Part shown: positions 62,691 to 63,279 of the stretch, piece by piece
How the letters are laid out: each line of letters starts with the position of its first letter
How positions within the stretch are numbered: the stretch's first letter is position 1
From: Escherichia coli
GTDB lineage: Bacteria > Pseudomonadota > Gammaproteobacteria > Enterobacterales > Enterobacteriaceae
Strand: one strand, 5' to 3'
DNA: 64,000 nt
Assembly (NCBI RefSeq): GCF_041886205.1
Contig: NZ_CP169031.1
The notes under the pieces: generated by a model
What the model saw: the letters and a program-made list of their open reading frames with translations, nothing else
Told to the model about the DNA's origin: nothing
The model's database searches: none
Translations under genes and position numbers: made by a program

Positions 62691-63113
62691 ATGTCATTCT
62701 TTTCTACGTTAAAAACAGCTTTGTCTTTGAAGGAGAAACTTGCTGCTACTGGTGTTCTTGTTCTGATTTGCGCACTTGTTGGTGCCGGGTTTGCATGGGA
62801 ACGTCATCAGCTAAAGCAAGCCTTGGATAAAATTGGCAGTCTTGATCAGGCTGTTAAGGAACGTGATAAGTCAATAATGGATCTTAACCAGACCATTGAG
62901 ACGATGAACAAAGCAGATCAACATTTTCACAGCCAGGAAGTGAAAAATGAATCAGAACAAGCCAAATATGCTGACAGGCAAATGGAACGAAAAGCTGAAG
63001 TTCAGAAACAACTGGTTGCGGCGGGTAATGTTCGCCAGCGCATTCCTGCTGACACTCAGCGGTTGCTCCGGGAGTCGATCAGCGAATTTAACGCCGACGC
63101 CGACAAAGGTTAA
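62691..63113 (+). CDS. i-spanin-like protein (N-terminal TM helix + periplasmic coiled coil), P1 ppfA-like
   Basis: 140 aa from MSFFST with SD AGGAGG; TM segment ATGVLVLICALVGAGFAW followed by a charged helical region. Confidence 0.5.
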   Translation: MSFFSTLKTALSLKEKLAATGVLVLICALVGAGFAWERHQLKQALDKIGSLDQAVKERDKSIMDLNQTIETMNKADQHFHSQEVKNESEQAKYADRQMERKAEVQKQLVAAGNVRQRIPADTQRLLRESISEFNADADKG

Positions 63114-63279
63114 CCACCCTGCCCCCAAAAGTGCATTTATGTGCAGAATGCCAGAGTTTAGCAGTGAATATTTTGATGATCTGCCAGCGTATATCCTCGA
63201 TACAGAAACGATGCTGATGGGGATTAACAGGAAGAATCGCAACGTTAATGATTACAACCGCGCTATCAGCGGTAACTAA
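62947..63279 (+). CDS. lipoprotein (o-spanin-like), overlapped with the preceding gene; P1 mlp-like
   Basis: Lipobox LLTLSGC followed by a Pro-rich stretch TPTPTKVNHPAP; reading frame overlaps the 3' end of the i-spanin-like gene. Confidence 0.55.
   Translation: MNQNKPNMLTGKWNEKLKFRNNWLRRVMFASAFLLTLSGCSGSRSANLTPTPTKVNHPAPKSAFMCRMPEFSSEYFDDLPAYILDTETMLMGINRKNRNVNDYNRAISGN

Follow-up and report, generated by a model that had tools for sequence, protein, structure and literature searches.

That the lysis genes of P1 are not linked to one another is a textbook oddity. The overlapping genes ppfA and mlp raise the question of whether they encode an i-spanin and an o-spanin, as was proposed by a sequence-only reading of a 64,000-nt stretch of DNA (hereafter the window), and whether their distance from the holin and endolysin genes bears on that proposal.

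A comparison of the whole window shows that it is a P1-like phage-plasmid genome in reverse orientation relative to P1 (NC_005856), with which it is collinear apart from a few replaced segments; unlike P1, it carries a type I restriction-modification locus and no EcoPI res/mod genes. A megablast search with positions 62600-63400 returned 20 phage records at 95-99% identity, all P1-like, among them RCS47 (99.3%) and P1 and P7 (98.4%). The P1 ppfA and mlp are the same genes as those in the window, with three residues different in PpfA (I45L, E46D, and E76D) and two in Mlp (S7N and V32A), and P1 has the same order, upfC-upfB-ppfA-mlp-upfA-oriR/repA.

The sequence-only reading had placed the pair about 50 kb from lydA, lydB, and lyz. 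The pair is indeed unlinked, and this figure holds for lyz (51 kb within the window), but lydAB are farther away (60 kb), and by the shorter way around the circular P1 map the distances are only ∼43 kb to lyz and ∼32 kb to lydAB. The adjacency of spanin genes to holin and endolysin genes that characterizes a lambda-type lysis cassette is thus not found for ppfA and mlp; such adjacency is not a defining feature of spanins, as the unlinked spanin genes of T4 (pseT.3/pseT.2, PMC6139136) show. The positions of the genes and sequence elements are collected in Table 1.

Table 1. Genes and sequence elements in the window, in order of position.
Feature	Position	Strand	Basis or remark
lydA (holin)	1572-1901	+	Open reading frame; lydA and lydB map to P1 30414-31183
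lydB (antiholin)	1898-2341	+	Open reading frame; lydA and lydB map to P1 30414-31183
lyz (SAR endolysin)	10866-11423	+	Open reading frame; maps to P1 20325-20882; followed by lydD
Candidate weak Lpa-type late promoter, AAACAACCT-GAAT-TAAAAT	61519-61537	+	Position weight matrix (PWM); 33 nt before upfC; speculative
upfC, PAAR-motif protein	61570-61854	+	P1 annotation
upfB	61806-62651	+	P1 annotation; upfC and upfB are upstream in the ppfA/mlp operon
ppfA Shine-Dalgarno sequence AGGAGG, strong	62680-62685	+	From sequence; same Shine-Dalgarno sequence in SpaninDB
ppfA, predicted i-spanin, 140 aa	62691-63113	+	Open reading frame; phrog_89; SpaninDB OIS; AlphaFold2
PpfA single transmembrane segment, codons 17-36, LAATGVLVLICALVGAGFAW	62739-62798	+	Kyte-Doolittle; SpaninDB TMD end at residue 36
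mlp Shine-Dalgarno-like AGGAAG	62935-62940	+	6 nt before first ATG; inside ppfA codons Q82-E83-V84
mlp, predicted o-spanin precursor, 110 aa	62947-63279	+	Open reading frame; phrog_30284; P2 LysC match; SpaninDB OOS
Two-frame region, 167 nt (PpfA residues 86-140, Mlp residues 1-56)	62947-63113	+	Reading frames and coordinates
Alternative mlp start TTG, codon 24	63016-63018	+	Short signal peptide MRRVMFASAFLLTLSG ahead of the Cys; aligns with P2 LysC Met1
Lipobox L-S-G-C, Mlp residues 37-40	63055-63066	+	Regular-expression match; LipoP site after residue 39 (SpaninDB)
Mlp Cys66 codon	63142-63144	+	Only free periplasmic Cys of the pair
upfA	63291-63683	+	Downstream of mlp
Terminator-like hairpin and T-run	63697-63717	+	14 nt after upfA

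Anatomy of the two genes and their predicted products

The single N-terminal transmembrane helix proposed for the ppfA product was borne out by a hydropathy analysis. The sole hydrophobic segment of PpfA comprises residues 17-35 (LAATGVLVLICALVGAGFA), or 17-36 as tabulated, with a Kyte-Doolittle 19-mer mean of 2.35 and the maximum starting at residue 17, and it is preceded by Lys residues at positions 8, 14, and 16; the predicted topology is type II (N-in/C-out). An AlphaFold2 model of PpfA, made with a 19-sequence alignment as input, contains a helix at residues 13-110, a break at 111-119, and a second helix at 120-137, with a modest mean pLDDT of 65. In this model the periplasmic domain is predicted to be mainly helical, with two segments joined by a linker or hinge at residues 111-119. 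The only Cys of PpfA, C27, lies within the transmembrane segment and is not conserved in the diverged clade described below, so the protein has no periplasmic Cys.

The mlp frame is +1 relative to ppfA and extends 166 nt past the ppfA stop codon, which confirms the earlier observation that mlp starts inside the 3' end of ppfA in another frame. The Shine-Dalgarno-like sequence of mlp, whose AGGA core is also marked in SpaninDB, lies within ppfA, and Q82 and E83, the PpfA residues encoded there, are invariant in PpfA. The features that had been noted in Mlp (a LLTLSGC lipobox, a Pro-rich stretch, and an extra Cys) were each recovered: the lipobox as LSG-C at residues 37-40, four Pro within the first 25 residues of the mature protein (LTPTPTKVNHPAP, including the TPTP stretch), and C66. 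The lipoprotein prediction suggested at that time gave the same answer, because the regular-expression match at residues 37-40 and the LipoP cleavage after residue 39 in SpaninDB coincide. C40 is therefore predicted to be the lipid-modified first residue of a 71-aa mature lipoprotein. The +2 residue is Ser (S41), as it is in every locus compared, and not the Lol-avoidance residue Asp, so sorting to the outer membrane is predicted. Nearly all two-component spanins appear to need a homotypic disulfide (PMC6139136); at least one periplasmic Cys in either subunit is provided by Mlp C66, which is invariant across all loci and is a candidate for such a bond by analogy.

Two starts of mlp deserve consideration. 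The first ATG (62947) has a Shine-Dalgarno sequence and is kept in all lineages, but the n-region that results from it is basic and, at 27 residues, unusually long. The alternative TTG at codon 24 gives a short signal peptide; this codon is ATG in five of the six diverged P1-like loci, is absent as a start in the other (L009), and has no Shine-Dalgarno sequence in the window. Both starts yield an identical mature Mlp, and judged from the sequence, the choice between them is ambiguous. An internal ATG at 63028 (MFASAFLL...) was rejected as a start, as it is not kept in the diverged clade and would provide no charged n-region. The length of the overlap with ppfA is 167, 98, or 86 nt when mlp is taken to start at 62947, 63016, or 63028, respectively.

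Conservation of the overlap and relatives of the pair

The genes were compared with those at six diverged loci (L005-L010) in P1-like elements of Salmonella, Cronobacter, and Klebsiella, in which PpfA is 58-63% identical, and with two more distant relatives (L011 and L012) that an exhaustive HMMER search with Mlp as the query brought up. In all eight of these loci, no stop codon interrupts the +1 frame over the corresponding span, and in each the mlp frame begins with an ATG at or just past the upstream stop codon. The lipobox motif is kept in all 10 loci examined, as LLTL[SN][AG]C in L005-L010, LSAC in L011, and LSSC in L012. The second Cys is likewise conserved in L005-L012 in a C-x-MP/LP context: AFMCRMPE is invariant in L005-L010, and its counterparts are WMCHMP in L011, SMCTLP in L012, and LCPMP in P2 LysC. 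The TPTP stretch is kept in L005-L010 only (as LMPTP in L007).

When the window was compared with the diverged clade, identity at the first, second, and third codon positions was 0.83/0.88/0.56 in the part of mlp outside the overlap and 0.65/0.72/0.42 in the part of ppfA outside the overlap. Within the overlap, identity at the ppfA wobble position rises from 0.42 to 0.66. This pattern argues that both frames are real genes under selection and that the overlap is constrained in both. The C-terminal parts of PpfA and Mlp are the best conserved, and ppfA and mlp belong to a set of 21 genes described as "extremely conserved" in 77 P1-like phage-plasmids (PMC9603915).

In the HMMER search of 1.8 billion representatives, Mlp proved to belong to a very narrow family, with 12 matches at E ≤ 1e-10 that are mostly fragments or mis-started stubs. 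On inspection of their loci, two short distant homologs in this list (P0110 and P0107) are overlapped o-spanins; further down, the list contains long proteins with repeats, which were discarded as apparently spurious matches of low complexity. Truncated annotations of mlp are frequent. MH422554 and most assemblies call a stub of 46-65 aa that starts at or near M65 (63139 in the window) and has no lipobox, and in OP279344, a P1 record, no mlp is annotated under the match.

Profile searches placed both proteins among spanins. PpfA matched the PHROG families phrog_89 (E 2.6e-24, near full length), phrog_739, and phrog_214, and Mlp matched phrog_30284 (E 1.9e-56) and phrog_456 (E 1e-4), all of which are labeled "Rz-like spanin." By BLASTP, Mlp is 37% identical to P2 LysC over 68 aa (E 5e-8) in an alignment that covers the signal peptide, the Pro-rich stretch, and the C-x-MP motif, pointing to Mlp as a detectable, distant homolog of LysC. 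BLASTP gave no significant similarity between PpfA and P2 LysB (E 19). No Pfam family was above threshold for either protein, with weak coiled-coil-type noise for PpfA only, and the NCBIfam matches were below their cut-offs both for LysB (TIGR03495, E 0.002, 18.3 bits versus 92.75) and for P2_Rz1/LysC (NF038368, E 0.017, 15.3 bits versus 27).

Operon, expression, and previous assignments

The genes upfC and upfB precede ppfA and mlp in their operon, and upfA follows; the hairpin after upfA is the probable end of the operon. The order PAAR gene, upfB-like gene, i-spanin gene, o-spanin gene is kept in L005-L011, and this linkage is old. At L011, the pair is directly upstream of capsid and sheath genes, with no plasmid replicon between them.

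Published RNA-seq data for wild-type P1vir (PMC8201110, Table S1) report log fold changes that increase between 10 and 30 min from 5.6 to 11.2 for ppfA and from 4.1 to 10.5 for mlp; as a group, upfC, upfB, ppfA, mlp, and upfA span 4.1-5.6 at the earlier time and 10.5-11.2 at the later one. In the same table (PMC8201110), the lysis genes behave alike (lyz, 6.1 to 11.3; lydA, 5.2 to 11.8; lydB, 3.4 to 11.0), and the adjacent divergent early genes uhr, hrdC, and dmt are at 8.6-9.4 and then 11-12. From these values, we conclude that the ppfA/mlp operon has late kinetics, like those of lyz, lydA, lydB, and the structural genes and unlike those of uhr, hrdC, and dmt.

The P1 record annotates no late promoter at this operon and only predicted σ70 promoters inside upfB. 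A strict search for P1 late promoters recovered known ones elsewhere in the window and none upstream of the upfC operon. With a PWM made from ten late promoters annotated in P1, the best local match ends 30-34 nt before upfC at the same aligned position in the window, P1, L005-L008, and L011. Its score is 2.4 in the window, 5.8 in P1, 6.4-12.0 in L005-L008, and 4.3 in L011, versus 16-23 for recognized late promoters, and its -10 element TAnAnT is invariant across eight aligned P1-like loci. Speculatively, this site may be a weak but positionally conserved Lpa-type promoter. A PWM match directly before ppfA (62653, score 6.8) was set aside because upfC and upfB share the late kinetics.

A regulatory scheme in two parts, in which the degenerate Lpa-type promoter upstream of upfC drives the late operon and mlp uses two starts, is conceivable but rather unlikely. 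Under it, the upstream ATG may give a signal peptide of 39 residues whose n-region is highly basic, and the codon-24 start, aligned with LysC Met1, may give the shorter form. If they were real, the dual starts would resemble holin dual-start motifs and could tune the rate of o-spanin export; together with the late promoter, they would be small additions to P1 biology.

The assignment of the pair is not new. SpaninDB (Kongari et al. 2018, PMC6139136) lists gp064 and gp063 of P1 (NC_005856.1) as an overlapped ("ovl") i-spanin/o-spanin pair. Its entry for gp064 gives 140 aa, a TMD to residue 36, and no periplasmic Cys ("one in TMD"), and its entry for gp063 gives 110 aa, a 39-aa signal flagged "Too long signal sequence," a mature length of 71 aa, the lipobox TLSG, one periplasmic Cys, and a LipoP site at 39 (PMC6139136). 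Bednarek et al. (2022, PMC9025707) describe ppfA and mlp as P1 spanin genes "in yet another unlinked operon" and credit the proposal to Summer et al. (2007). Their sentence calls ppfA the o-spanin and mlp the i-spanin (PMC9025707), labels that are the reverse of those in SpaninDB and of what the sequences indicate. The RefSeq product name of mlp is "Rz-like spanin," and several GenBank records of P1-like elements use "Rz" and "Rz1." We found no paper that gives ppfA or mlp another function; the sequence-only reading had named such a paper as evidence that would speak against it, and the literature and databases instead give spanin. The identity of the pair, including its unlinked location, was thus already known in all parts, and because the genes have been listed as the P1 spanin since 2007-2018, the result carries little weight as a discovery. 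Its practical value lies in annotation, as mlp is a stub called "Rz1" or hypothetical, or is absent, in many P1-like records and assemblies.

The only functional data on ppfA and mlp that we found in the literature are knock-downs in a genome-wide dCas12a CRISPRi screen (PMC10695390), in which neither gave a plaque defect. The efficiency of plating was 1.3 for ppfA and 0.24 for mlp, and both genes were scored as non-essential, as were upfA, upfB, and upfC (PMC10695390). The plates contained 5 mM CaCl2 and 5 mM MgSO4 (PMC10695390). A deletion without effect on lysis in millimolar divalent cations was the other observation that had been named as evidence against a spanin, and the screen touches on this point, but a knock-down is incomplete and is not a deletion, and plaques are a coarse measure and not one of lysis kinetics.

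A probable two-component spanin and its known counterparts

Based on the gene anatomy, the conservation, the constraint on both frames, the homology of Mlp and LysC, and the Rz-like profile matches found in this analysis, together with the late expression and prior assignment in the literature, ppfA and mlp very probably encode a two-component spanin of the P1-like phage, with an overlapped architecture like that of P2 lysB/lysC. The candidate i-spanin/o-spanin pair of the sequence-only reading thus stands on every sequence property that could be examined in silico, and the PHROG and LysC matches agree with it. What is said here of a PpfA-Mlp complex, of the disulfide, of membrane fusion, and of a need for the pair in lysis comes from the lambda and T4 model only.

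By that model, ppfA and mlp would be transcribed late together with upfC, upfB, and upfA. The N-terminal helix would anchor PpfA in the inner membrane (N-in, C-out), and a mostly helical domain of ∼104 residues would project into the periplasm. Mlp would be exported, lipidated at Cys40, and cleaved by signal peptidase II; owing to the +2 Ser, the Lol system would place it in the outer membrane, on the inner leaflet, and it would probably form a homodimer through Cys66. The C-terminal parts of PpfA and Mlp would bind each other, giving complexes that span the periplasm through the peptidoglycan mesh. Triggering of the LydA holin and degradation of the wall by the SAR endolysin Lyz would then free the caged complexes, which would collapse and fuse or disrupt the inner and outer membranes as the last step of lysis. 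An AlphaFold2 model of the PpfA periplasmic domain joined by a linker to mature Mlp, made with a paired 8-sequence alignment, reached a pLDDT of only 52 (for most of the Mlp part, less than 50) and was too poor to show an interface.

Several observations count against a spanin reading: the operon partners of the pair are a PAAR protein and UpfB and not lysis genes, the operon is preceded by no strong Lpa late-promoter motif, and PpfA has no periplasmic Cys. The pair could be real and located in the envelope and yet have a job other than lysis, such as superinfection exclusion, receptor masking, envelope remodeling, or a part with the PAAR spike-tip protein UpfC and with UpfB in virion assembly or DNA entry. 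The operon partnership fits such a role, as it includes upfC (PAAR) and upfB but not lyz or lydAB and is kept even in L011, where the pair adjoins the capsid and sheath genes on their upstream side; so does the knock-down without a plaque defect, and some phage-encoded lipoproteins, T5 Llp and lambda Bor among them, have roles in exclusion. We nevertheless consider this quite improbable, because the expression is of the late and not the prophage or early type, Mlp is homologous to a P2 spanin subunit, both proteins match only spanin-labeled PHROG lysis families, and the literature that we found assigns no other role. Moreover, the combination of a TMD protein and a lipoprotein gene that overlaps its gene is the diagnostic signature of spanins used by Kongari et al. 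(2018, PMC6139136) and, as cited in PMC6139136 and PMC9025707, by Summer et al. (2007).

A spanin-type complex might instead be redundant or dispensable in P1, with the outer membrane broken otherwise (by another P1 product, shear, or osmotic forces) and the pair contributing only in particular hosts or conditions. This would agree with the non-essential score of both genes despite 5 mM Ca2+ and Mg2+, with the annotation of P2 lysB and lysC as "nonessential; affects timing of lysis," and with the statements that phages can do without spanins in shaken laboratory cultures and that the multiple holins of P1 reflect adaptation to different hosts and conditions (PMC9025707). We give it only a slender chance, since strong purifying selection acts on both frames across clades, the genes are among the most conserved of the 77 P1-like elements (PMC9603915), and an incomplete knock-down, read by a plaque assay and not by lysis kinetics, can leave enough protein. 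That mlp is a chance open reading frame and ppfA the sole gene has next to no probability. Many gene callers do skip the overlapped part (calling 46-65-aa stubs or nothing), and OP279344 has no mlp, but the open frame, start region, lipobox, and Cys recur in 10 of 10 loci, including those at ∼60% identity or less, the third-position bias in the mlp-only part indicates selection on the frame, and Mlp is homologous to LysC; the chance reading is refuted by the conservation analysis.

As a probable two-component spanin, the pair shares the logic of lambda Rz/Rz1, in which a type II inner-membrane protein whose periplasmic domains are helical is paired with a small, Pro-rich outer-membrane lipoprotein (PMC6139136), and Mlp C66 is the candidate counterpart of the Cys that the lambda o-spanin uses for a homotypic disulfide (PMC6139136). 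It differs from lambda in that Rz has two periplasmic Cys and PpfA has none, and in that mature Mlp, at 71 aa, has a conserved and possibly helical C-terminal half, whereas the lambda o-spanin is smaller and has no predicted helix (PMC6139136). T4 PseT.3/PseT.2 resembles the P1 pair in the location of its genes away from those of the holin and endolysin, in an i-spanin that, like PpfA, has no periplasmic Cys, and in a comparatively large o-spanin with a predicted C-terminal helix to which Mlp can be likened (PMC6139136); however, pseT.3 and pseT.2 do not overlap, and PseT.2 has two essential Cys versus one in Mlp.

In P2 lysB/lysC, as in ppfA/mlp, the start of the o-spanin gene lies within the 3' part of the i-spanin gene, in the +1 frame, and its end lies beyond that of the i-spanin gene; LysB (141 aa) and PpfA (140 aa) each have an N-terminal TMD. 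P2 differs in having periplasmic Cys residues in LysB and more Cys in LysC than in Mlp, and in keeping lysBC inside the lysis cassette after Y-K-lysA, whereas the P1 pair is unlinked from the lysis genes. The sequence-only reading had called the arrangement the classic overlapped Rz/Rz1 architecture. The overlapped class stands, but lambda does not typify it, as Rz1 is wholly embedded in Rz while mlp extends 166 nt beyond ppfA; P2 lysB/lysC, and not lambda, is therefore the closest architectural model for ppfA and mlp.

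Start codon and annotation of mlp

Analysis of the mlp reading frame identified two plausible start codons (table), and the gene may use both. The 39-aa signal peptide predicted from the upstream ATG carries a "too long" flag in SpaninDB (PMC6139136). At codon 24, the TTG in the window is replaced by ATG in most diverged relatives.

In many public P1-like records and assemblies, mlp is annotated as a stub of only 46-65 aa, named "Rz1" or hypothetical, that starts 3' of the ppfA stop codon and has neither the signal peptide nor the lipobox. In addition, PMC9025707 interchanges the two spanin labels, with ppfA given as o-spanin and mlp as i-spanin.

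Gene neighborhood of the predicted spanin pair

The distant P1-like phage L011 retains the gene order PAAR, upfB-like, i-spanin, and o-spanin; its i-spanin has 149 aa and contains a periplasmic Cys. Because major capsid and sheath genes lie directly 3' of this L011 spanin block, the comparison suggests that the plasmid replication/partition module of P1 sits between late genes that are neighbors in L011.

A candidate late promoter, 30-34 nt 5' of upfC, was found by position weight matrix (PWM) at an aligned position common to several lineages. The P1 late-promoter motif consists of a 9-bp -22 box, 4 nt, and TAnAnT; the candidate sites score 2.4-12.0, compared with 16-23 for recognized late promoters, and the P1 annotation has no late promoter at this site. 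The upfC operon has been reported to show late kinetics by RNA-seq (PMC8201110).

Gene content 3' of mlp varies among P1-like loci. The window (63291-63683), P1, and locus L009 have upfA (phrog_1453, unknown function) after mlp. In L006, L008, and L010, its place is taken by a member of the Gp49/Phage_gp49_66 family, and L005 has a Gp49 gene followed by an upfA-sized ORF of 129 aa. The upfA gene of JL22 carries a blaCTX-M-55 insertion (PMC9603915).

Features of the predicted spanin region and of segments that differ from P1
Feature	Sequence	Position	Strand	Remarks
Upstream ATG start of mlp	window	62947-62949	+	conserved; 39-aa signal peptide, long basic n-region
Codon-24 start of mlp	window	63016-63018	+	TTG; aligns with Met1 of P2 LysC
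Stub-type mlp annotation	window; L002	63139-63279; 2039-2179		also in L005-L010
Candidate degenerate P1 late-promoter motif	window	61519-61537	+	PWM
Same aligned site in P1 and relatives	L001 (P1 locus); L005-L008; L011	2919-2937; about 2840-2863; 4521-4539		PWM
PAAR, upfB-like, i-spanin, overlapped o-spanin	L011	4571-8201		Logan SRR12344463 contig
Region after mlp	L005, L006, L008, L010	about 4597-4966
Type I restriction-modification locus, complete	window	35587-41592	+	strong Pfam matches
IS66-family transposase ORF	window	29-1078	+	Pfam E 3e-103
94-aa ORF in lydC position	window	1227-1511	+	adjoins IS66 transposase ORF

Segments that differ from P1

Nucleotides 1-1520 of the window have no match to P1, and the IS66-family transposase ORF is probably cut by the window start. 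By megablast, 9323-10006, 33761-34578, 53469-53756, and 55738-56327 also have no P1 match; these four short segments fall within regions already known to vary (isaA, humD/lxr, ban upstream, and tciA-C).

The type I locus comprises hsdM, hsdS, and hsdR (520, 402, and 1038 aa, respectively). It lies within a 6.5-kb segment not present in P1, which has the pmgT side at one end and the upfM/hot side at the other. Compared with P1, the window lacks the type III EcoPI res/mod genes and their IS5 (P1 3413-9752), which are replaced by 946 nt without a P1 match (21997-22942).
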